In this document: one piece after another, positions 1,246 to 63,113 of the stretch
How the letters are laid out: each line of letters starts with the position of its first letter
Position numbering within the stretch: position 1 is the first letter of the stretch
Source of the DNA: Flaccisagitta enflata
Lineage: Eukaryota
Reading direction: 5' to 3'
Assembly: GCA_965153355.1 (NCBI GenBank)
Contig: OZ231126.1
Location: forward strand, 43,276,001-43,340,000
Length of the DNA stretch: 64,000 bases
Program-made: the position numbers and the translations under genes
Notes under the pieces: generated by a model
The model's database searches: none
What the model was told of the DNA's origin: nothing
Seen by the model: only the letters and a program-made list of their open reading frames with translations

Positions 1246-1797
1246 CACCGTCTTCGGATCGGACTGTGAAATGCAAAACCTTATAGCTCCTAAACCACTA
1301 GGAAAAGTCAGAAATTTTTCAGTGAATATTGATAACATAAAAAAGACGTTGTGTCGGTCTGCATCATGTAATATAGAAAAAGGTGAGGGGAAAACAAAAT
1401 ATTGAGTGAACATCCATTTTTTAAGCAAAATGGTTTTTTTTACCCGTTTTTTTAGAAGGTGCTGTTTTTCTCTCAGAATATGCAGCAAATCGATAATACA
1501 TAAGTTAACATCTTTCAACAAAAATAAATCCTAGAGTTTTTTGTTGAAATGCAAAGCAATTTCAAGCAGATAGAGACAATTCCTTTTTAAGGAAATGGGG
1601 AAAAATTGATCTTAATTAAAAATGGGTTTGCTTTCAATATTTTGTTTTCCCCTCACCTTTTTTATATTATGATCTGAGCTTTGACATGCAAAAACCGTCA
1701 CATGTTACAAATATTCATTGAAAATTTCATGATTTTTTTCCTAGTGGTCTAGGAGCTACAAAGGTTTTGCATTTCACAGTCCGATCCGAAGACGGTG
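1246..1797. mobile_element. MITE with long TIRs and TA TSD (Tc1/mariner-type)
   Basis: TA|CACCGTCTTCGGATCGGACTGTGAAATGCAAAACC ... GGTTTTGCATTTCACAGTCCGATCCGAAGACGGTG|TA. Inverted similarity continues well beyond 100 bp. Confidence 0.9.
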
Positions 1798-2245
1798 TAT
1801 GAAGAAATGTAAACAAAAGTATCTTAAAGCGGGTACCCAGTTGCACGAATAGAACCTTTTCAGGCATCAATTCGATTCCATTGCATTGGCTAGGAAAACG
1901 CATGAATATTTGCGCAACAAATTTAGGGAATCTAATGGCGGCTCAGTTATGCTCTTATTGCTAAAACTTTTAAAAGCGCAACATTTTTAGTGTTACAGTG
2001 CTTTAGCATATCGGAACGCGTAGTCCTTTTAAGCCTATATGGCTGTGTTGCTTGCAATTGCACATGAGCACGCATGTCTGTTGCAGGTGTATCAGAGCTC
2101 AACTTGTCCATCAATCGGTCCCTCTGTCATGTCATGTCATGTTTGAATATTCACACAGTTTCAGTTCAATCCATGAACTCAAACGTTATTTGGTACTTGA
2201 CATCTGGCCTTTGTTACGGGTTTTGCGTTGTGGATACGCAACTCT

Positions 2246-2497
2246 TTTTAGTTGCGGACACGCAACTCTATAAGAGGCTTTGTCCGTCCATCTGTTGGTC
2301 CGTCCGTCCGTTGGTCCGTCCGTCACGCTCGAGTTGGAAAGTGTGAAAACGCGCATTTCCGCCCCTGCCCACCCGTCCGCAACTGGTATTGGCCGTGTAT
2401 GTGGCAGGGGTGGTTGGGGGTGGGGTTGGGGTGAGGCTGGGGGTTGGTGCCCCTGACCACCCGTCCGCAACGATATTGTGACCCCGCGTCACTTGTT
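2246..2497 (+). mobile_element. Non-autonomous Helentron-associated element (HINE-like)
   Basis: T-run, then a 5' hairpin (AGTTGCGGACACGCAACT) and a (GTCC)n tract. 3' subTIR GTCCGCAAC, then a hairpin (GTGACCCCGCGTCAC) and TTGTT. Confidence 0.75.
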
Positions 2498-2646
2498 AAG
2501 GGCTTCTGTCCATTTGTCCGTCGCTCACGCTCGAGTTGAAAATGCAAAAATGCTCCTTTTTGATGCTGATTGTGTGTATGAACGTTGAAACAACGTTGCC
2601 CTTTAAAAAAGGAGGCCAGAATTCTCCGATTTACAAAGGATGAAAG

Positions 2647-2876
2647 CCATTCGCACCCAACACACACCCTCACAGTTTTGTCAGGTAAGTTCTGTCAGGT
2701 TGTTTGTCAAAAGTAAAAGAAAGTTGTGAGCAATCTGGAGTAAACACTGAAAGCCTTGCAAGCTTTCAATGAACAGTGTTTACTCCGGATTACTCACAAC
2801 TATTTTCTACTTTTGACAAACAACCTGACAAAACTTACCTGACAAAAGTATGTGAGTGTGTGTTGGGAGCAAATGG
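2647..2876. repeat. ~230-bp near-palindromic foldback element
   Basis: The left arm CCATTCGCACCCAACACAC...TTTTGTCAGGTAAGTT...GGAGTAAACACTG pairs with the right arm CAGTGTTTACTCC...AACTTACCTGACAAAA...GTGTGTTGGGAGCAAATGG. Confidence 0.85.
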
Positions 2877-3523
2877 GGGTTGTGCGCCCCTGCCCCCTTA
2901 ATTGTTGGCAAGGAATTTTGACTATAGATACAACAGAAGCAGCCAAATAGCAACTCTCGTTTGCGCGAACAATTCTATTTATTTCTGTTTTAATCCCTTG
3001 AGCCCTTTAGAATTAAGTTAAATTAACATTTTATTTCCTCTTATTGCGTTGGCATCTAAAGGGAAATGATATAAATGGGCAACGAAGAGTGAAGAACTTA
3101 AAGATAGAAACGAAGGAAAACGCGGCAAAGAAACGAGGAGAAAAAAAAAGAGAAAAATCAATTCCGGAATTAACACTTCTTAAGTGAGTCCTCGCAATAT
3201 GTAGCTTAAGAGACACACACCGAGAAACAAGTTGATGTGGATAAAGTTGCGTGTGATAGAATTAGAAGTACCATAGATAGAGATAGATCACACAATTACT
3301 AAAAAAAGAAAAAGCCAAAAAAGAAAAAAGAAAAATAAAAGAAAAAGCCAATAGACAGTGGAAGAACGAATTAACAGTTCGACGGATGGACAGAAAGATG
3401 GATGGATGGATGGACCGAATGGTGGATGAAAGCAGACGGATGAACACAGTGATTTATTGAGTCACATTGTATACTCACTGAATACTGCGCCACTAGAAAT
3501 CAACCAAGAAAAGCTAAACCCGT

Positions 3524-25483: not shown

Positions 25484-26372
25484 CTTTATTCTATGATATA
25501 CAATACTATACTATACTGTATTCTACACCCTACTGTGTACTTTCTATACTGAATAGGATAATTATTTAGCGATAAATAATAAGCACGCATTTAAGCCCAT
25601 TTCAGCCTAAAAATGAGATTTTGCTAAGCACGCTCAGCCTCAGCTAAAAACATTGCGTGCTTATAAAATAAAAAAAGTGTACTCAACCTACTTTGTAATG
25701 ACTAATGAGGATGAATACTTAATGTAGCACGGTTTTTTAAGAAGCGTTTTCTGCGTCACACTGCGTGTCTCTCTATGCTTTGGTAAGTTGCGCACGTGTA
25801 TGACAAAGAAACGAGGAGGATTGTTATCTCAAATAAATCGCACTTGTTCTACGGTTGCATGCAGCCACACTCGAACTATGGCGTGCTCTACTATCGGACA
25901 ATCTCCAAAAAATGTTTTTGCTATGGTTTTATACGTTTTATGAAAGAAAGATGACGCGCAATGATACATGTGAACTGAGACTCGGACTCTGAAAAAAAAG
26001 TGTTGGGGCGAGTTCTAGAAAATACGCATGCAATTCATTGACCATATTTTTTTGTCAATTTTGTTAATGAAAAATCATTTAACTTGAAAACGATACAAGC
26101 TGAAGATATATGGACCCCCTTGTTTTTTTTTTCGCGGCTTTATGTTTCCTAGGCGGGAAAAAATCCATGTTTGGAATCATAAGGAAGCAACTCTTACATC
26201 TTTACCTACCTGGGGGAATGGACGGATGGACGGAATGACAAACGGAAGTCCCGTGTTCTAAAGGACTTGGTCCCCTTCGGGTCCGCTGCCTGTTAAGCAA
26301 CTTTGTGACCTACGGAGGGACAGATGGACGGCAGACGGACGGACCGATGGACCAAAAAGAGGCTTATAGACT

Positions 26373-27398
26373 AATAGTCGCAGAAGCGTTAGATGGTCAG
26401 CAGTGCCCCTTGCCCTGCTTAAGTAGGTTGTGGTTGAAGTTGAGGGGGGAGCAGGGCAGCGGCCCCGAAAGGGTCGATGACCTAAGCTTTAACATATATG
26501 GGGAATTTTCTTCTCCTCCTCCTCCTTTTGGGCAGCGGCCCTGAAGTGGTCGATGACCTATACTTTCACACATATGGAGAGTTTTCTCCTCCTTCGTATC
26601 CCCCCTCAAATCCCAGTCTCAAGGCCCAAATTTCAGTCTCGAAGTCCAAATCCCAGTCTCAAGGCCCAAATCCAAGCCCCAAGGCCCAAATCCTAGCCTC
26701 TAGGCCCAAATTCTAGCCTGGAGGCCCAGATTCCAGCCTGAGGCCAAAATCTCAGTCTCAAGGTCATTCCCAGCTAAGAGACCCAGTTCCCAGCCTCGAG
26801 GCCCAAATCTCAGTCTCCAGGCTAGGATTTGGGCCTGGAGGCTAGGATTTGGGTCTTGGGGCTTGGATTTGGGCCTCAAGACTGGGATTTGGGCCTCAAG
26901 ACTGGAATTTGGGCCTTGAGACTGGGATTTGAGGGGGGGTATGGAGGAGGAGGAGAAAACTTCCCATATGTGTGAAAGCATAGGTCATTGACCTCTTGAT
27001 GGCCGCTGCCCTGCTCCCCCTTCAACTTTAACCACAACCAACTTAGGCAGGGCATGGGTACCAGTGACCATCTAACGCTTTTGCGACTATTTCTCCTCCT
27101 CCGCACCCCCCCTCCCCCAGCCTCCAGGCCCATATCTCAGCCTTGAAGCTATTCCAGCCTGAGGCAAATCCCTCTTGAGGCCCAAATCCCTTGAGGCTGG
27201 AATTTGGGCCTGGATTTGGGATTGGCCTCCAAGACCGGGATTTGGGCCTTGAGGCTGGGATCATGGGCCTAGGCTGAGATATGGGCCTGGAGGCTGGGAG
27301 AGGGTTTGAAGAGGAGAAGGAAGAAGAAGAAGGAGAGAGAAAATTCCCCATATGTGTGAAACCATAGTCATTCGAGTCTTGGGGCCGCTGCCCAAAAA
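26373..27398 (-). mobile_element. HINE-like family B copy (long subTIRs) with a second copy (26526-27091) nested in opposite orientation
   Basis: Termini AATAGTCGCA..AAGCGTTAGATGGTCA and GGGGCCGCTGCCCAAAAA, internal IR with GGGCAGCGGCCCC..ATGACCTA..TTTCACACATATGG, and degenerate ~21-bp internal repeats. Same family at 46688-47139, 47177-47683 and 57263-58040; a related subfamily at 59471-60160 and 62150-62791. Confidence 0.75.
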
Positions 27399-27445
27399 TT
27401 GTACATGACACAAGAAAACATAAAAATGTGACCCAAACAAATGAA

Positions 27446-27548
<103 letters not shown>

Positions 27549-27735
27549 GCAGACACACACGCCGACACACACTGACACACATACATAACAAATTCGAAAA
27601 CATAACTTGTAAACGTACCTTGTCACAGCATCTTTTGATACGTCGAAATCATTGTCTTCTTCGGGTTCTCGGGGGTGTGCTCGTCCTCGTCCTCGACGCC
27701 GACCTCGGCAAAAAATCGCTTGGGCAATCATCAAG

Positions 27736-27745
27736 NNNNNNNNNN
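27736..27745. other. Assembly gap (10 N)
   Basis: NNNNNNNNNN, 53 bp upstream of the Helentron ORF start. Confidence 1.
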
Positions 27746-27798
27746 AAGGCCCTTTTAAGGGCCAAAAATTGCTTCAATTCATTTTGAAATATTGAGCT

Positions 27799-30700
27799 AT
27801 GTCTGCCATGGCTCTTCCAAACTTACTTTTAAAAAACGGAGGACAGAGTGACAGAAATATGTGTTCCCTGAACAGCAATATTCAGCTATTGCGACACATA
27901 CCTGAATTCACTTCAGTTATTCACAGCATGCAGAATGAATCTGCTCTCCTCAGTGTCATAAGCAGTATATTCTCTCAATGTGGGAGCAATATTCCTATAA
28001 GCGCTTCACTGTTTAGGCATCTTGTGGCAACTCAAGTTGGAAGACCACTTGATTCTGGGGCACAGTATGACACTGTCGAGATTTTGAATTATTTGTTGGA
28101 TGTTTTTCCCAATGAACTTTTTCATTTTGATACATCAACACAGTACAGATTCATGATAAATGGAAAAGCGACATCATGCCCAATCTGCAAACAGTTTCCT
28201 GGTGAAATTCCGGGTTCGGATAAAATTTTGAAAATAATATTGCCCAATTCACATGTTAGGTTGTCATTGCAGGCATTGGTAAATAAAGCATTTTTACCTG
28301 TAAATCAACAAGATGGACGTAGGTGCAATTACTGTGTACAGAATGATCCAGCTTCCCCTATGATTCCTTCAATTGAGAAGACTAATCTTTTAGGTCATCC
28401 TCCTTATCTTTTCATGCAAATTCTTAGAATGGAATTCATCCACGGGAAAACCGTAAAAAACTGCACTCCTATAGAGATTCAAAAGGAGATTATAGTGGAT
28501 CGACAAAATTATGAAATTATAGGGATGATCACTCATATGGGTACAGCAGATGCTGGCCACAATAGGGCTTATCTTAGAGTGGGTTCTGAATGGTATCTAT
28601 GTGAGGATGACAAACCATCAAGAGTAAAGATACCTATAGATAACCAAAATGAACAAAGCTATGCTTTACTGTGGAAAAAAAAGGTGTTGGAAAACATACC
28701 AGAAGTTCAACAGTGTCACATAGCTGTTAACAGACTCCCAGATTCTGCTATGTCTGCCACATATGCCAATGTTGCTTCCACTTCAACTAAACATAGAGAA
28801 CCAAACCAAAAAAATATTGGTAGACAAGAGAAAAATAATGCACCTTTTTTTGGTATTCCAGACAAAGATATAAAGCATGAGACCAAATGCAAAGTATGTG
28901 GAAAAAGTTTTATTAGTATTAATCATCATCTGAGTATGAGTAAATGTGGCACACCAGAAGACCGGGAAAGAATAAAAAGTGATAATAAAATCAGAAAGAG
29001 AGAGAGAAGCAAAGAGTCAATGAGAGAACTACGCGGGAGAGAAAAAGAGGAAAAAGATCCTGAGGAGTATGCAAAAAAGGAAGCAGAAGGACGTCAAACA
29101 AGGAGAATGGAAGAAAAACAGGTAAATCCGGAGAAGTATGCTGAAAAGCATGCAGCAGGTATTCAGAAAACAAGAATGAAAACAAAGGAAGTCAATCCTG
29201 AAGAGTATGCTGCAAAGCATGCAGCCAGTATTCAGCAAACAAGAATGAAAACAAAGGAAGTAAATCCTGAAGAGTATGCAGAAAAGGAGGCAGAAGGACG
29301 CCAAACAAGGAGAATGAATGAAAAAGATGTAAATCCGGAGAAGTATGCTGAAAAGCATGCAGCTGGTATTCAAAAAACAAGAATGAAAACAAAGGAAGTC
29401 AATCCTGAAGAGTATGCTGCAAAGCATGCAGCCAGTATTCAGCAAACAAGAATGAAAACAAAGGAAGTAAATCCTGAAGAGTATGCAGAAAAGGAGGCAG
29501 AAGGACGCCAAACAAGGAGAATGAAAGAAAGAGAAAAAAATCCTATGGAATTCAGGCTAAAGGAAAAAACAAAGAAACAACAGTATCGACTAAACAAGGT
29601 TGATACACCTTTTAAAAGAAAGAAAGCTTTCTCTGCCTCGATTCGTGATGGTAGGATCTACTTCTGTATTTGTTGCCATCGAAGGCTCCATAGTTCTCAA
29701 GTCATAGAGCTTGAAGACAACTGGAAAGATTCAATGGAAGAGGAGTTTCCAGGTTCAATCTCTAAACTAGTTGGCCCAATTCCTGAAAGATTTTTTTACC
29801 CCCCAGTAAATTTAGGGGAAGATTCATACAAACTGGAGAGTGATCATATTTGCCATACCTGTAAAAAATACCTAGAAAAAAACAAAATGGCCCCCATGTC
29901 AAACATGAACAACCTCCAGCTCATTGATTTCACTGAGCATCCTGAACTGAGACTTAGTGAACTAGAACAACAGCTGATAGCTCTTAACATAATTTTTCAA
30001 AAAATTGTTCTACTCCCAAAAAGCAGGATGAATGCTATGAAAGATAAGACAGTCAGTGTTCCTATTCAACACTCTGATGTTGTTGAAACATTAACAAAAT
30101 TGCCTAGAACACCCAATGATGCTAGTTTGGCAGTGGTGCAATTAAAAAGGAGGTTAGGATATTCTGGGGTTCATAATCAACAACTCATTGATATAAAAAA
30201 AGTTCTTAAAGCTTTAAGAACATTCACAGAAATGAAAAATCCTTTCTATAAAAATATTCTTGAAGATCATGACTTTCAACAAAGATGTTTTGAATCTGAT
30301 CCGACTGGTTACAAAATTTTGTTCCCTGATAATGAACAAAATTTTGATGAACCAAACTCAAATTCACAAAACATAGATCTGTCTGCTTTAGAAATAGACT
30401 CCCAAAAACACATTGAACAACCTCAAAGTGTAGATGCCACTGAAGAATGTGACAATGTTAAAGAGGTTGAAGATGAGGACCAAGAATACAGAGAGAAAGA
30501 TCCAATAGGCAAGAACCAATTCAATTATAACCGTTCCACTTGTTTTGGGGACAACCACCCTGAAATAAGTGTAACAGAAAACACTACTGAACCCACTCAA
30601 GTAGCACCGGGTCAGGGTAAAATCCCAAGAAGTATAATACAAGATGAAAACTTTGAAGTAAAATCCTTCCCATGCTTTTTTCCTGATGGCAGAAATGGTT

Positions 30701-30930
30701 TAGATGAGGAAAGAAAAGTAAGACTTAATTCCCAGGATTACTGGGGACAACGAATTCTGAATGTAGATGATAGGTTCTCTGGATGTCCTCCATATGTTTT
30801 TGCAGCAGCAGCCCATACTGAGTTGAAACAAATGAATCGAAACATAAATCTTTCATTTCAAAGAGGATTAGAAAAAGTCAACCCTGATGGATCTTCCATC
30901 TATACTTTGGAAGATCCATACATGGTTTAA
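27799..30930 (+). pseudogene. Helentron polyprotein segment 1: USP (peptidase C19) domain, Zn finger, 23-aa repeats, Cys-rich pre-Rep region
   Basis: Cys box KNGGQSDRNMCSLNSNIQLL, QYDTVEILNYLLD, CPIC/CNYC, PPYLFMQILRMEF and His box YEIIGMITHMGTADAGHNRAYLRVGSEWYLCEDD. Further motifs: CKVC..HH...C, CICCHRRL, ICHTCKKYL, LPRTPND and FPCFFPDG. Ends at TAA 30928-30930, but the frame continues. Confidence 0.88.
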
Positions 30931-33051
30931 GACAATATAAAAAATACCCCAAGGTATTGGAAAAAAGCTAGACAAGAATTATTTGCAAAGTTAGAAAACC
31001 TTGGACCCTTTACTTTCTTTTTTACCCTCTCATGTGCTGACATGAGATGGGCTGAAAATTTTACCTCTCTACTGGAGGGGCACAAGGTTGTCTTTGCTAG
31101 TGTGGATGGTAATGAGGAGTTTTTTATTGATGATGAACCTTTGGACGAATTCCTAAAAGCATATCCCAGTAAACATGAACTGATTAAGAACAATCTTCTT
31201 AATGCTACTCTAAACTTCCAACATCGACTGAAAATGTTCCTTAAGCATATAGTTTTGTCAAATGGCTCTTCCTTGCCCCTGAGCCATTACAACTACAGGA
31301 TAGAGTTCCAATTTCGTGGGGCACCTCATGCCCATGGAACTTTATGGCCAGACTGGAAAAGGTTTAGAAATCTTCCGAGTGAAGATGTAAAAAGAATCCA
31401 AGATGGCTTCAATAGAATAAAATCTGGTGACACTCTTTCAATAGAACACAAAAATTCTCTTGTAAAATTTGCTGACCAATTCATCTCTGTATCATTGAAT
31501 GACCCCGCAACTTCAAAAGTTGTGAAAGAGGTGAACATTCATAATCATACGAAGAAAGCATGCCAAAAGTATGATACACATTGTAGATTTCATTTCCCTC
31601 GATTTCCTACCTATGAAACTATCATCAGTGCCCCATCAAACATAGTTTTTCCTGATGAAAATGAACGGAAAACTATGATGAAGCGGTACACAACATTTCT
31701 AGAAGCTGTTAAAGAAGTGTTGGAAGATGAAAATGTCATGAAACAAATTGTAGCTTACAAACAGGAAGCAATGCAACAAATTTTTGTAGAAAGAAGTCTT
31801 AAATGGAGGTTGAAGCAGATGATTTGTGAGGCAGAGTATGACAAAGATGAATCTCTCTTGATTATTCCTGAAGATTTGAAACAGGAAGTCAAAGAGTTCA
31901 TGGATGACAATGGCAGACTTAAAATGGATGCAATAATAGCAGCAGAGTCGAGACTGAATGACCATGATGAGAAAATGAATGATATCATGAAGGAGAGGGT
32001 GATAAAAATGCTTGAATATGTTGACATTGAAAAAATTGACACCAAGGTTACTTTGCGCCTAGAGGAATACCTCAATGCCCTCTCTGTTAACAAAAAAGGT
32101 TACAGCATTCATTACAAAAGGGATGTGATGGAAACAATGGTAAATACATATAATCCTGAATGGATATCAGCATGGAATGGAAATATGGATATGCAGCTAT
32201 GTCTTGATTATTTTGCAGTAATCACTTATATAAGTGACTATTACTGTAAAGATGATACTGGCACTATGCAAGTGCTGCAAGAAGCACTCAAAGAGTCAAG
32301 AAATGAAAATCTGAGAAATCAATTACAAAAAATGGTTTCAGTTTTTTTAACTCATAGACATATGGGAGAAAGTGAGGCATACTACAGAATCTTGCCTAGT
32401 ATGCATATGAAAGATTCAAATATTACAACAGTTTTTGCTCAAACAGGTTTCTTTCCGAGTAGATTTTTGGAAAGAATAGAGGAAAATCAGGAAAAGTACT
32501 GTGAAAAAGTGGTTGAAGTTGAAGGTAGATCGGGAAAATATCAAGAAAAACCTTCTCTTTATGATAAGTACTTGAGAAGAGATTGTACAAATCAACCATA
32601 TTTACAAAAGTTGACTCACGCCCAATTTGTAAAATGCTATCAATCATCTAGTGTGATTGACAAAGAGTATGACTTCAAAGTTTCTACAATCACAAAAGAC
32701 CCTGATAATGAAGGTACCCAAGTATTAGGAAGTCAAATCATCTCTCCTAATTATGATGATGAGGATACAGCTGTTGAGCTGCCCCCATTCATCACTATTT
32801 GTAATTTAAAACCAGGTGAATTACCCTTCATGAAACGGCGTTCACCACAGGTATTGAGATATCATAAAGATATCATAAATTCAACAAAGAAAACAACCCT
32901 CATGAATACTACTATTCTGAATTACAACTTTATCATCCTCATGGACTCATATCAGACAAAAAAAGTTTTAACCTTGAGAGAGAAAGAGATGATTTTGACA
33001 GATGCAAAAAAACATTTTTTGAATCTGCCATATCCAATGTCAAGAAAATAA
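30931..33051 (+). pseudogene. Helentron polyprotein segment 2: HUH Rep (rolling-circle initiator)
   Basis: In-frame continuation DNIKNTPRYWKKARQELFAKLENLGPFTFFFTLSCAD (motif 1), YRIEFQFRGAPHAHGTLW (HUH motif 2), CRFHFPR, NTYNP..WNGNMDMQ and YISDYYCK (YxxxY motif 3). An 11-bp duplication at 32857-32878 shifts the frame. Confidence 0.92.
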
Positions 33052-33099
33052 TCATGCCTTTCATAGAATCAGTCGAATATGGTCTTGAACAGGCAAGGG

Positions 33100-35416
33100 A
33101 ACAGAAATCATTGGTGATGAACTAGATCCACAAAATGAACAAGACAGGGCAGAATGTGAAGCAGAGGGATTTCAGGATCATCCAGATTTTGCTCTGTCTG
33201 ACCCAGACAACCTAGATGTGGAGAGAGAATCATCAAGCACTGGCTTATTTAAAACAGTAACCATTGACTCAGACGAAAACCTGCACAAACTAACACAAAA
33301 GCTTGATCATGATCAGCAAATTGTATTCAGCAAAATTTTGAATTTTGCTTACCAAATCAAGTTATTGCGAAAAATTCCAGTGGAAGTGACACCTCCATTA
33401 ATAATTGTACAAGGGGGTGCAGGTTCCGGAAAAAGTCTCTTGATTAAGACAATGGCACAATGGTTTGAAAAAATACTAAGACAATCAGGAGATGATCCTG
33501 ACAAACCTTATGTCCTTGTCACTGCTTTTACTGGAACAGCAGCTGCAAATGTTGATGGCATGACTTTGCATTCCGCCTTTAATTTCAATTTTGGGAATGA
33601 CTTTCTTTCTCTTGGTGACAAAACAAGGGACCAAAAAAGAGAGTATTTAAAAAATCTTAAATTGGTCATCATAGATGAATACAGTATGTTAAAAGCCGAT
33701 ATGTTCTATCAGTTAGATCTAAGATTAAGAGAGTTGATGCAGAATGCTGATAAGGTCTTTGGAGGATGCTCCATCATTTTGCTTGGGGATGCTCATCAAC
33801 TAAGACCTGTAATGGGCAGGTATGTTTTTGAAGAGCCTATCTCAGAAGGGTATCGTCTACCCCATCTAATAGATCCCTTGTGGAAGAAGTTTCATGTGAT
33901 ACTACTGACTAAAAATCATCGGCAGGGAGAAGATTATGCATATGCAGAAATCCTGAATAGAATAAGAACAGGCAATCTTTCAGAGGATGATTGCCAAGTT
34001 CTTAGAGAAAGAGTTCGAAATAAGAATTCAACAGACCTACCAGAAAAGGCCCTTTACATCATTTGTGTTAATGCTGGTGTCAATAAGATGAATGAAGAAA
34101 GGCTTGAAAAATTGCCAGGATCCCAATACGAGTTTCTTGCTGATGTACGACGATCTGGGAAGCCATCTAAAAAACCCAGACTGAATAATGATGGTGCAAT
34201 TTTCAACACTCCATTACAGTATCAACTGAATTTGAAAATTGGCGCCAAAGTGATATTAACCTACAATGTCAATGTTATAGATTCACTCACCAATGGCGCC
34301 ATTGGAATTGTACTTGGTTTTGAAAAGACAAATGATTCAATCAAGAGTGTTCTTGTTCATTTCAATGATGAAAAAGTTGGAAGGGAAAAAAGAAAAAAAA
34401 ATTCTAGGTACTTACAACATAAGTACCCTGGCATCCCGGTAACTCCCATATCAAGAATAGAATTTCGCTTCAATCTTTCCAAAAATCCAACATCTCAAAA
34501 TGACTTAATGACAGCGACACAATTTCCTCTGAAGCTGGCATTTGCTTGTACGGCCCATAAGATGCAGGGCAGTACAATCCCAAAACCTGAACCATTAGTC
34601 ATTGATTTGAAATCCGTAAAAGAGGCTGCTCAAGCCTATGTCATGATGAGCCGTGTTCAATCTCTTCAACAACTCTTCATCCTTAATGAATTCCCAAAAG
34701 ATAAAATTTTCCCTTCTAATGTTGCAACATTAGAACTTGACAGACTAAAGACAATCGCTTGCAATGAAGAGGTAAAAAGTAAGATAAGTAAAACAATCAT
34801 TTTCAGTCTGAATATCCGATCATTACCAAAACATCACATGGATCTTCTATCTGACACAATGGTAAATGCAGAGGTGATAGCTCTTCAAGAGACATGGTGT
34901 GACTCAGATCAAGAAAATCAGCATTTGGCATTACCAGGTTACCAAATGCATTTTGCAAGCCAAGGAAATGGAAAAGGAGTTGTAACCTACATTAAAGGAA
35001 CTTACAGGGTTTCTGCCACAATCAATAAACAGTCATATCAAATGATCAAAGTCACAGGAAACAAATTTTCTGTTATCAATCTTTACTGCTCAAAGGGGGC
35101 AAACAAGCAACAGTTCTTTAGTGATTTGATGACATTGTTAAGAGGAACGTTGTGTTGCATAATAGTAGGAGATTTCAATGATAATTTCTTAAAAGAGCCA
35201 AAATCAAATTTTGTGCAACAAATGATTGCACAAAAATTGACCCAATTGGTAGAGACACCAACACATGCAGAAGGTGGACTGCTGGACCATGTTTATGTAA
35301 CAAATACAAAATGGCTATTAAACACAGAGGTCAACTTTCGGTACTACTCAGATCATGCTGCCATTACTGTCATGAAGGCAAATGACATTGAGGTTGATGA
35401 GGCAATGTCATCATGA
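33100..35416 (+). pseudogene. Helentron polyprotein segment 3: Pif1-family SF1 helicase and APE/EEP endonuclease
   Basis: Helicase motifs: GGAGSGKS, TAFTGTAA, IIDEYSML, FGG..IILLGDAHQLRPV, LTKNHRQ, QFPLKLAFACTAHKMQGST, AYVMMSRV. EEP motifs: SLNIRSL, LQETW, IVGDFN, LLDHVYV, YSDHAAI. TGA at 35414-35416. Confidence 0.93.
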
Positions 35417-35605
35417 CACAACAAATGACATTTCCTTTCATTAAGAAAATTGAATCATATCAAGAAATCAAGACATAGCTTCATATTCCTTCACAAAATG
35501 TTTTTAATATACAATGAAAAAAGCAACAAAACAATAAGTGTAAAAGAAATATAAAAAAAAAATACAAATATACAAAACATGAAATTCTGAAATTACAAAA
35601 CATAG

Positions 35606-35777
35606 AATTCTAAAATTCTAAAATTCTAAAATTCTAAAATTCTAAAATTCTAAAATTCTGAAATTAAAAAACTAAAAAATTACAAAACCTAAAATTCTAA
35701 AATTCTAAAATTCTAAAATTCTAAAATTCTAAAATTCTAAAATTCTAAAATTCTAAAATTCTAAAATTCTAAAATTC
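35606..35777. repeat. (CTAAAATT)n octamer tandem repeat in the Helentron 3' non-coding region
   Basis: Read directly from the sequence. Confidence 0.9.
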
Positions 35778-37159
35778 AGTAAAACACCGATGCCAGGTTG
35801 CAAGTCCTGGAGGCAGAAGTTTGAGCACTGAATTTTAGAAAATTTCCATTTGGATAGAAAGTGTGCATTGCTCTTTATCAAAAGTGAGATTCTCACTAGG
35901 TATTTTTTCCCAATGGCTTGATATGTGTTACAAATGTTTCAAGCTATTTGTTGATCATTCTAAATGCTACAATTGATTTGTGCAACATAAAACATATTAA
36001 AGGCTCATCTTTCTGTCCATCAATAACCCCAGAATTCCCTCCGCTTAGAGCTTACCAGAGGACGCATCGTTGCCCGATCGGGCTTGTTTCCTGGCTAAGT
36101 GTAAACACACGAAAAACAAGCTTAACGCGTTTTGGCGCTTACCGTCTCCTGACTCAACAAGGCCGGATACACGGCCAATAAGCAGTCGCTGACGAGTGGG
36201 CAGGAGCAGTTTGCAGATGGGCAGGAGCAGTCATTTGGTGGGCAGGGGCTGCATTTTGGGTCTTGTGACCTACGTACGTGCGTACGTACGCACGTACGTA
36301 CGTAGGGACACACCCTCTTATAGAGTCGCTTAGTCAGCGACTAAAAAGTTGAAAGTAATGACAACTTCTGTCGCTTTATGTCCGTTTCACTCAGTAACAG
36401 TTCAGAAACCAATTAGCAGAGACTTGTCACATTATTATTGTTATAATAAACCCGTAAACACAAAATTGTCATGATAAATTCATGAACTCAGGATTTCCAA
36501 GTATCTGAATGAGAAAAAGAAACATAAGGTCAAATTACGCTTTTGATGCGCAACATATGTTAGACTTTGACCAAGAATCCGCTCTGTTTGTTCTATGAAC
36601 TTGTTTTTTTTCATTTTTTTCAATCTCATGATCCTATTGTTTACAGTTTATTAGTTATTTATATGTTAATTAAATCAGTACTTAAAAAAACATCCGGGAG
36701 GATGGTGCGTCTTTTTCTTATGACGTGGCCGAATGTTATTTCAGCCAAAGTGTTTGTCTCGTGTCCATCGCATTTAAGCTCAGCAAACAAAATTACGTAC
36801 TGCGCGAGGACGAAGATTGCCGCGCGGTTTCTACGTTTATGTTCATTTGAAATATTTATTTCTCTTGAGCGGTTTGAGATATCTGCATGAAATTTTGAAC
36901 ATATTATATTCATGCGTAAGACCGCTCACTGTGTAGTTAGGGTGTGTCTATATGCAAAAGGACTTTTGATGAGACCATCAACATCAGACAGCATAAGATA
37001 TTAAATTCTAAGACCTTTAACATTTTTATTTTATCAAATTTCATTCATTTTTTTCAAAACCTCTTTTGTATATTGCTGTGTTGATGATTTTCTATCAGTA
37101 TCATTGTTACTGAACTTAATCAGATTAACCACATTAATATCTTGGTGCTAATTCAAATT

Positions 37160-61205: not shown

Positions 61206-62138
61206 TCATGCGGCAAAGTCAAAGATGGCGTAGCGATCGGGATGTCGCTGAAAGTTTTCATCGACAAAACCTCCAATGCATACCACCGAAACTCCGTCAT
61301 CAATACGCTTCAACGTGAATGCCTGATGTTGTTTCAGCCCTCCTCTTTTCCCGCCAAATTCATGCGAAAGCGATGGAAGCTCTTTCCATTCGGACTTATC
61401 AACGTCAAAGATCGAGGCCTGGTTTGAGACTCCTTTAGTGTCGATGCCTTGGTCCCCGCCAACTAGGAACAGCTGAGATAAAGAGACTCGCGTGAGCGAG
61501 TGATAGTGTAAACCATTTATAATCCCCGAGTTTTCGATCCTGGTCCACTCCATGATTTTCATATCAATCATGAAAAAGTCGATCAAGCTCCTACCATCGC
61601 ATAAACCACCGTGAATGAAAACGCGATGATCGAGTTGGGCGACAGCAAAACTAGAACGCGGCGTCGGTTTCCTTCCGGTGGTTTGGAGACGTCTGAAGGT
61701 GCTGGCGCGAGGATCGAATTGGTAGAATTCGTTGGTATAGTAGACACAGTTTTTCACCGAGTTGAAAAACTCGTCTTGTCTCAACCCGTCCGTTTGTCTG
61801 AGGTTACCGCCAAAAAAGAAGATTTTGCCGTCGTAAGACCAGCCGCCATGATTCCGTCGCTCGAAAGGAATGTCACCGTTGGGATAGAGACGCGTGAATT
61901 TCCCGTCGACTGTTAGAGAGGAAATGTCTTTGACCCAACTATGATTGTTGCCGTCTTCCCCTCCAAAGATGTAAAGTGTGTCGTCCTGGATTGCGGAAGC
62001 CGCAAATATAGATCCAGGATGAACCTCACCAGTTGCGGGAATCCGTTGCCATACTGCCCTGTCTCCAAGTTTGAGTGGAGGCGAGAATAAGTAAAGGAAG
62101 CCGGTAGGAGTGACGAGATAGCGTCCATCTTTTTGTAC
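61206..62138 (-). CDS. Kelch-repeat beta-propeller protein (KLHDC1/KLHDC2-like), terminal exon
   Basis: Acceptor TTTCAG then 933 nt in frame. Kelch motifs: LYIFGG, GDIP..R..HGGWSYDGKIFFFGG, TTGRKPTPRSSFAVAQLDHRVFIHGG, HSLTRVSLSQLFLVGG, VVCIGG. Confidence 0.88.
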   Translation of the reverse strand, partial: VQKDGRYLVTPTGFLYLFSPPLKLGDRAVWQRIPATGEVHPGSIFAASAIQDDTLYIFGGEDGNNHSWVKDISSLTVDGKFTRLYPNGDIPFERRNHGGWSYDGKIFFFGGNLRQTDGLRQDEFFNSVKNCVYYTNEFYQFDPRASTFRRLQTTGRKPTPRSSFAVAQLDHRVFIHGGLCDGRSLIDFFMIDMKIMEWTRIENSGIINGLHYHSLTRVSLSQLFLVGGDQGIDTKGVSNQASIFDVDKSEWKELPSLSHEFGGKRGGLKQHQAFTLKRIDDGVSVVCIGGFVDENFQRHPDRYAIFDFAA

Positions 62139-63113
62139 CTGAAAGTTTGAATAGCAGCCCAAAGGCAGTAAGTGGTCAGCGGTACCAGTGCCCTGCTTGG
62201 GAAATGTTTGATTTAGTCTGAGGGGGAGCAGGGCAGCGGCCCCAAAGGGTACAAAGTTCTGTAGAATACAGGGGGAATCTGTCCGTCCATCCACCCATCC
62301 GTTTGTCCCCCCTACCTCATCCTCAGGGCTTTGTCTCCATTGAGGCCTATTCTGACCCAAATTCTGCCAAATAGCTCAAATCCAAGCAATGTGGCCCAAA
62401 TCTAAGCAAAATGGCCCAAATCCAAGCAAAATGGCCAAAGTCTGGTCAGAATTTGGGCATCAGAGGCCACAATATAAGTCAGATAAGGGGTCAAAATAGT
62501 GGACCTCAGGCTTGAATTTGGGTTTTCTAGCCAGATTTTGGCCATTTTGCTTGGATTTGAGCCATTATGTTTAGATTTGGGCCATTTTGCTTAGATTTGG
62601 GCCATAGTGCTTGGATTTGGGCCACTTGGCAGAATTTGGGTCAGAATAGGCTCCAAAGGAGACAAAGCTCTGAGGATGGGGCGGGGGGGGGGGGGGAGAC
62701 GGATGTATGGACAGACGGACGTACATATGGACGGACAGATTCTCCCTGTGTTCTACAGGACTTCGTCCCCTTCGGGGCCGCTGCCCAAAAATGGCGCCGT
62801 CTTGGATACATGATAATATCAGGATTATCGCCCTATCACGATCAGCCCAATTACTTTTTTCCTCAAGACCTCGACATTTTTTATCGCACGTACGCGACTC
62901 TGGATGTTACTAGGAAAGATGGTAACACAACCGAACCCCCAACCCATTAAAGGATGAGAGCCTTTGAAGCTCTCTATGGTGTTTAATCCGAACCCATCAC
63001 AACTATCCTTCAATTTTCCTAAAAGAAAATTACACTGAGAATTATCAAAGGATCCTACAAAAATTATTTCACATTTAAAACAGCATTGCCCTCAGTCCTC
63101 AGTATATTTGTAC

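Follow-up and report, generated by a model that had tools for sequence, protein, structure and literature searches.

A stretch of 64,000 nucleotides (nt) from Flaccisagitta enflata (GenBank assembly GCA_965153355.1, contig OZ231126.1, positions 43,276,001 to 43,340,000, forward strand), here called the window, was analyzed to follow up a sequence-only reading made by a model; all positions are in the numbering of the window, not of the contig. The window holds a single long coding region (27799-35416, plus strand) whose domains lie in the order ubiquitin-specific protease (USP), zinc knuckle, 23-aa repeats, DUF6570, Rep, PIF1 helicase, and AP-endonuclease. The analysis supports its assignment to the HLE2 group of rolling-circle transposons, as an endonuclease-bearing Helentron in which a USP-fold domain forms the N terminus of the same frame. 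The sequence-only reading had also called a Helentron, and this identity is borne out by the presence of Rep and a PIF1-type helicase, an AP-type endonuclease, and DUF6570 upstream of Rep. Four sequencing runs were compared with the window, two of DNA (X1 and X2) and two of RNA (metatranscriptomes X10 and X15). The features of the locus are as follows.

27736..27745, no strand: assembly gap of 10 N, 53 nt 5' of the start codon (sequence read)
27746..27798, plus strand: leader, with a hairpin at 27748-27763 (stem GGCCCT/AGGGCC) and an in-frame TGA at 27793-27795
27799..28684, plus strand: USP domain (peptidase C19/Pfam UCH), from profile, model, and alignments
28885..28947, plus strand: Cys-x2-Cys ... 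His-His ... Cys knuckle, aa 363-383, from pairwise alignments
29057..29534, plus strand: tandem repeat of ~6.8 copies of a 69-nt (23-aa) unit, in frame (TRF)
29884..30270, plus strand: DUF6570 (PF20209), ~aa 696-824 (E 4.5e-8; 34.1 bits versus a cutoff of 24.3)
30928..30930, plus strand: premature TAA in the Rep domain, private to the window copy
30937..31338, plus strand: Rep (Helitron_like_N) core, from Pfam, with His-Ala-His at 31327-31335
32857..32878, plus strand: 11-nt unit, twice in tandem, which shifts the frame
33106..33107, plus strand: 1-nt loss relative to contigs of X1, X2, and X10
33413..34321, plus strand: PIF1-type helicase (Pfam, 83.6 bits), with Walker A GGAGSGKS at 33413-33436, followed by a 2B domain
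34805..35356, plus strand: C-terminal AP-type endonuclease (Exo_endo_phos, PF03372; E 3.4e-12; 47 bits versus a cutoff of 24.5)
35414-35416, plus strand: stop codon of the Helentron frame
35606..35777, plus strand: (AATTCTAA)n microsatellite in the 3' noncoding part

The first open reading frame (ORF 1, 27799-30930, 1,043 codons) opens with the ATG at 27799-27801 and runs unbroken from USP into Rep, where it ends in TAA; the claim of the sequence-only reading that the protease and the pre-Rep region share one frame therefore stands. The same frame resumes after the TAA and continues to 33051, and the last coding piece (33089-35416) is shifted by one frame. Helitron_like_N was matched on both sides of the TAA (profile positions 88-131 and, for P0002 aa 46-99, 137-189), the match resuming directly 3' of the stop at 30928-30930. 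The His-Ala-His at 31327-31335 is presumably the HUH motif of Rep.

A USP-type (peptidase C19) deubiquitinase (DUB) had been proposed for the first ~295 aa, and the profile match was found: Pfam UCH (PF00443) aligned to aa 18-292 of ORF 1 over profile positions 6-254 of 254 (E 2.3e-18; 67.1 bits versus a cutoff of 23.9), a strength far beyond chance. The sequence of the domain alone gave a single weak match against the PDB, yeast Ubp8 (E 0.007). A scan of 1.84 billion representative proteins returned 477 relatives at E <= 0.001, 19 of them at E <= 1e-30, and the family profile matched USP15 (E 5.1e-39) and, more weakly, USP2, USP8, and USP21 end to end, reaching 106 distinct chains at E <= 1e-5. 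An AlphaFold2 model of the domain, built from an alignment of 32 relatives (mean pLDDT, 93.6; pTM, 0.88), was searched against the PDB with Foldseek and yielded 459 matches at E <= 0.001. The top matches were all USP catalytic domains (USP30, USP18, USP35, USP21, USP46, USP12, and USP2; E about 1e-20; TM 0.72-0.76); an overlay on solved USPs had been suggested as a check, and the model superposes on them, USP2 included. As modeled, the domain has the USP fold and the Cys, His, and acidic residues of its active site.

The residues named in the sequence-only reading were found where it had placed them, namely, the ATG, the in-frame TGA, Cys22 (TGT, 27862-27864), His254 (CAC, 28558-28560), Asp270 and Asp271, the QxD motif (Q89/D91), and two CxxC pairs (C127/C130/C176/C179), which are the zinc ribbon cysteines. 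Its reading of the catalytic triad stood in part: the triad aligns, with Cys22 on the Cys of the canonical Asn-Thr-Cys box and His254 on the Gly-His box, and the alignment to canonical USPs puts Glu269 at the third position, followed by Asp270 as the conserved fourth residue, rather than Asp270/Asp271. Among the relatives, position 3 is Glu in the window and P0007, Asp in P0005, P0051, P0203, P0204, P0237, and P0087, and Asn in P0279. Seven full-length USP domains were aligned (P0005, P0007, P0203, P0204, P0237, P0051, and the window; 25-59% identical), and Cys, Gly-His, and the Asp/Glu/Asn-Asp pair were retained in 7/7. Glu at position 3 is chemically similar to the usual residues. According to the available text of PMC10867860, USP1, USP15, USP40, and USP48 can do without the third residue but not without the fourth, so Glu269 is no strong argument against activity.

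The window domain has its fold, Cys box, QxD, four-Cys zinc ribbon, and His box in common with cellular USP catalytic domains (USP15, USP2, USP8, USP21, USP30, and USP46/12). It differs from them in its low identity to solved USP chains (only 14-20%), Glu at triad position 3, Gly-His-Asn in place of Gly-His-Tyr, 2-4 residues inserted before the Cys box, its minimal size (about 295 aa), and its residence in a transposase.

Relatives of the helicase-endonuclease part were searched among longer proteins (120 listed of 151 at E <= 1e-10), and among those listed, precomputed Pfam matches gave UCH in 4, OTU in 7, and a tegument-like domain in 2. Three proteins (P0203, P0204, and P0237; 2,405-2,652 aa) carry a full N-terminal UCH, Helitron_like_N, and PIF1 in one chain, with DUF6570 also matched in P0203 and P0237, and their C termini match the window endonuclease (E 1e-25, 1e-31, and 2e-19, respectively). 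The Pfam endonuclease score lies below the cutoff in P0203 and P0204, and P0237 has no Pfam endonuclease match at E <= 0.01, which may explain why a Pfam-based survey would not see UCH and endonuclease together. Protein P0051 (3,191 aa, on an 11-kb contig) has a full UCH, DUF6570, Helitron_like_N, and PIF1 and is colinear with the window ORF, including the knuckle; P0087 has the C-terminal half of USP with DUF6570 and Rep, and P0279 starts within the USP domain (C-terminal end only) and also carries Rep, the helicase, and the endonuclease. The USP domains of the distant Helentron-linked clusters are only 25-31% identical to that of the window. A one-off chimera or a misassembly at the gap had been named as an outcome that would undo the architecture; the gap precedes the ATG and so does not separate USP from Rep, the domain recurs in other family members, and the USP-transposase fusion is neither a gap artifact nor a one-off.

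Other searches contributed less. The 1,043-aa ORF as a query found no match among longer proteins and one distant RepHel protein at similar length, and no related locus was found in JGI metagenome contigs and viral contigs. The closest USP relatives (P0005-P0009 and others) are uninformative on what follows the USP domain because their contigs are only 1-2 kb long. In P0051, no endonuclease match was seen, and aa 3084-3166 weakly match the His-box half of the USP profile again (E 0.007). Two metagenome proteins, P0017 (2,009 aa) and P0020 (1,918 aa), have an unusual architecture of 7 and 6 tandem USP domains per chain (UCH E = 9e-203 and 1.7e-218, respectively). UCH was accompanied by a weak Mutator-like transposase match in P0131 and by STPR repeats in P0084; USP domains may ride in further transposon types.

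A FastTree phylogeny of the helicase-endonuclease part was built with 113 rows (14 of the 126 available sequences were omitted for poor coverage). The window groups with P0203 and P0204 in a starred 33-row clade, and P0237 and P0279 fall in the sister clade of 57 rows, next to OTU-bearing elements. The N-terminal regions of at least 300 aa (n = 39) were clustered by single linkage, placing 6 with USP, 2 with VTD (herpes-tegument-like domain), and 28 with the OTU-bearing ones; in 15 of the 39, an iterated search clearly detected an OTU-like module, and the remaining ones are unclassified. The sequence-only reading held that this lineage had taken up a DUB fold other than OTU, and USP is indeed an alternative module, with related elements carrying OTU or VTD at the N terminus. 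From the sequences compared, USP appears to be a minority, patchily spread alternative to OTU and VTD at the same N-terminal position. The order of gains and losses is unreadable because the tree is unrooted and most rows are cut N-terminally. A direct USP-to-OTU swap between nearest relatives was considered and not shown: the weak OTU-like region of P0198 is without relatives among the N termini, and the N termini of P0205, P0207, P0189, and others are unclassified. One Helentron protein, P0263, has three OTU-like modules in its N-terminal 700 aa.

Part of the stretch was present in 20 of the 24 listed runs, which comprise marine metagenomes and one organism. Contigs matching it numbered 299 in X1 and 308 in X2, in identity classes of >=99%, 95-99%, and 90-95% (X1: 131, 81, and 87), and 30/30 bins were covered in both DNA runs. 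In X1, the depth of the USP bins (about 1250-2330) was like that of the Rep and helicase bins (about 1480-3290), contig depth not being equal to copy number. The family thus has several diverged copies in the genome; within the 64-kb window, tblastn with the element proteins found only one copy.

These contigs lack the lesions of the window copy. Position 30929 reads T in contigs of the two DNA runs, giving TTA (Leu) for TAA; the 11-nt unit is single in one contig each of X1 and X10 (RNA), the X2 contig ending at this point; and contigs of X1, X2, and X10 have one extra base after 33106. The 11-nt duplication and the 1-nt loss account for the switch from frame 1 to frame 2. Between these last two lesions the third frame of the window is open, and lesion-free copies would therefore carry one frame of about 2,535 codons. 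The window copy is a dead member (one stop, one 11-nt duplication, and one 1-nt loss) of a family with intact members. In X1, contigs also join about 29538/29540 straight to about 34380/34384 (depth 53-64), which suggests internally deleted derivatives retaining the USP part and the endonuclease end.

Among the 40 between-copy differences listed of 388 found, 27 were synonymous and 28 changed the third base of a codon; the 10 within the USP part comprised 8 synonymous and 2 nonsynonymous changes. The USP domain is an inherited, selected part of the transposon lineage, not a passenger or an assembly artifact. RNA contigs of X10 and X15 cover the Rep, helicase, and endonuclease parts, and they are weak evidence of expression; stretches without RNA cover in these two runs are not evidence of silence.

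Between USP and DUF6570, the Cys/His knuckle is kept in P0005, P0007, and the distant P0051 (pairwise alignments). The 23-aa units that follow (repeat family D2) are rich in NPEEY and basic residues and differ in number among element copies, contig joints stepping back 269/275 nt. The repeats matched no Pfam family above threshold. The STPR, a 23-aa DNA-binding repeat listed for Helitrons, was tried as an identity and rejected, as the Pfam STPR family gave no match up to E 10.

The gap at 27736-27745 leaves the 5' end of the Helentron undefined. The leader hairpin folds at -11.5 kcal/mol (RNA parameters). The bases before the gap (27700-27735, GGCAAAAAATCGCTT...) resemble those after it (27760-27790, GGCCAAAAATTGCTT...), and two similar leader copies of the element may be joined across the gap. 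On the 3' side, the (AATTCTAA)n microsatellite probably lies within the Helentron, and a 39-nt near-perfect palindrome based on (TACG)n (36268-36308; -34 kcal/mol for 36255-36320), about 850 nt 3' of the stop, may represent the element's 3' hairpin or have nothing to do with it. Just 5' of the gap, 26370-27400 holds nested inverted repeats with arms of up to 154 nt (88% complementary) and tandem units of about 20 nt, which may be another mobile element or satellite and are followed by a (TC)49 microsatellite (27448-27546). Farther away, Kelch repeats (PF24681, E 1.5e-46) are encoded by a 389-codon open frame on the minus strand (61206-62375), which presumably belongs to a host gene as one of its exons.

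The sequence-only reading knew of no earlier description of a USP-bearing Helentron and could not vouch for novelty. Novelty of USP-bearing Helentrons is not supported: a full-text literature search returned HELIANO (Nucleic Acids Res 2024, PMC11417382, and its preprint) as the one work linking the UCH domain to Helentron-type elements, and that catalog came first. In the part of it available, UCH counts as one of 20 domains that stably form part of Helitron-like elements and occurs almost exclusively in Helentron-type HLE2, where subgroups c and d are enriched for it; the endonuclease occurs mainly in HLE2 subgroup b, DUF6570 is a marker of HLE2 elements, and all but four named domains lie in ORFs apart from that of RepHel (PMC11417382). 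Its UCH-bearing HLE2 elements resemble the window element in having UCH with DUF6570, Helitron_like_N, and PIF1, whereas in the window, P0203, P0204, and P0237, USP, RepHel, and endonuclease lie in one frame. Judged from sequence, what appears to be new here is the in-frame USP fusion in endonuclease-bearing elements, the conservation of the active site, and the marine host range.

Zebrafish Helentrons offer a functional parallel. Their VTD domains react with Ub-PA and cleave Ub-AMC and ubiquitin chains in vitro, they have been suggested to prevent degradation of proteins that transposition needs, and helitrons seem to gain from deubiquitination by different DUB classes (Nat Commun 2022, PMC9741609). 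Like the window module, the VTD/OTU Helentron modules described in the available text of that paper are papain-fold DUBs in the ORF of endonuclease-bearing Helentrons, with a likely protective role; the window module differs in its USP fold with a zinc-ribbon finger, and in vitro activity is so far that of VTD only. USPs figure in that text as a cellular class only, never in transposons (PMC9741609).

It is very probable that 27799-35416 is a recently inactivated autonomous endonuclease-bearing HLE2 Helentron whose single transposase frame is headed by a USP-type deubiquitinase domain. Lesion-free copies would make a transposase of about 2,535 aa that includes the USP domain, and we infer that this built-in domain is active as a ubiquitin isopeptidase. 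Most likely it would free the transposase, or proteins brought to the site of transposition, of degradative ubiquitin chains, giving these proteins a longer lifetime during rolling-circle transposition. By analogy, the domain is probably active as a DUB and probably protects the transposase or its partners against ubiquitin-dependent breakdown, since the zebrafish Helentron VTD domains have been given the same suggested role (PMC9741609). On balance we also lean, with some reserve, toward USP being a third DUB class beside OTU and VTD at the transposase N terminus of endonuclease-bearing Helentrons, catalytically intact, under purifying selection, and patchy among relatives with OTU or other N-terminal modules.

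Four other explanations were weighed, and all are less likely than the favored one. That the USP domain is a pseudo-enzyme, a ubiquitin-binding module that guides the transposase to chromatin or replication factors carrying ubiquitin but does not cleave, would suit the Glu at triad position 3 and the Asn that replaces Tyr after the catalytic His in this subfamily; it is distinctly unlikely, as the nucleophile Cys and the general-base His are present in all aligned full-length USP domains together with the fourth-residue Asp, the sisters P0005, P0051, P0203, P0204, and P0237 have Asp at position 3, and the third residue is the dispensable one in the four USPs named above (PMC10867860). Helitron-like elements are known for gene capture, HELIANO calls extra domains captures (PMC11417382), and the N-terminal module varies among related elements, all of which would fit a captured host gene fragment riding as a passenger without a role in the transposon life cycle. 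This is distinctly unlikely given that USP is always N-terminal and in frame with the transposase, even in the distant Helentron-linked clusters, that its catalytic residues are retained throughout, and that its listed differences run at 8 synonymous to 2 nonsynonymous; the original capture may be real, with the domain since maintained.

The sequence-only reading had also raised processing of the polyprotein; a self-processing protease of this kind would resemble the papain-like proteases of some viruses, and the very long, multidomain frame is compatible with it. USPs, however, cleave as isopeptidases specific for the ubiquitin C terminus, and Pfam found no ubiquitin-like domain in the polyprotein (Gly-Gly cleavage motifs were not searched), which makes this explanation very unlikely. 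The 10-N gap nearby might suggest an assembly artifact in which a host USP gene was joined to a Helentron; this has next to no probability and is already refuted, since the gap comes before the ATG, the uninterrupted 1,043-codon ORF spans both USP and the pre-Rep region, the same architecture recurs in independent assemblies, and the USP bins are as deep as the rest in two runs.

Several points nonetheless weigh against a USP-headed, autonomous, and enzymatically active Helentron. The window copy itself is unable to make the protein, and no single contig bridges USP to Rep, the contigs being short (longest listed piece, 1,277 nt). The USP part has little RNA support, with one diverged X15 contig (28111-28280, 15 differences) and an X10 depth of zero, and DNA carry-over in the RNA libraries is possible. 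Glu269 occupies a position where USPs usually have Asp or Asn, and the closest subfamily has Gly-His-Asn, not the usual Gly-His-Tyr. The nearest helicase-endonuclease relatives (P0181-P0186, 52-64% identical) begin in the middle region and are uninformative on USP. Helentrons characteristically insert between T and T and end in hairpins and inverted repeats, but the element termini were not found: there was no inverted match of >=11 nt between 27747-27830 and 35417-36700, and no convincing terminal inverted repeat or hairpin emerged. To our knowledge, no transposon USP has been enzymatically assayed to date, and the target given here for the protease is pure inference.

The finding extends a cataloged system by a marine family and an endonuclease-linked, in-frame architecture and adds no new category. 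If USP is indeed such a third DUB class, animal rolling-circle transposition would repeatedly select for an on-board deubiquitinase, and the published picture of UCH in separate ORFs and in endonuclease-less subgroups would be partly due to copies that are broken and to an endonuclease that has diverged. With its small size (about 295 aa) and confident prediction, the USP version should express easily and would be a convenient reagent for asking which ubiquitin chains and proteins are targeted. OTU, VTD, and USP are three unrelated DUB folds at the same place in Helentron transposases, which is good comparative evidence that escape from ubiquitin-dependent control is a general Helentron need.

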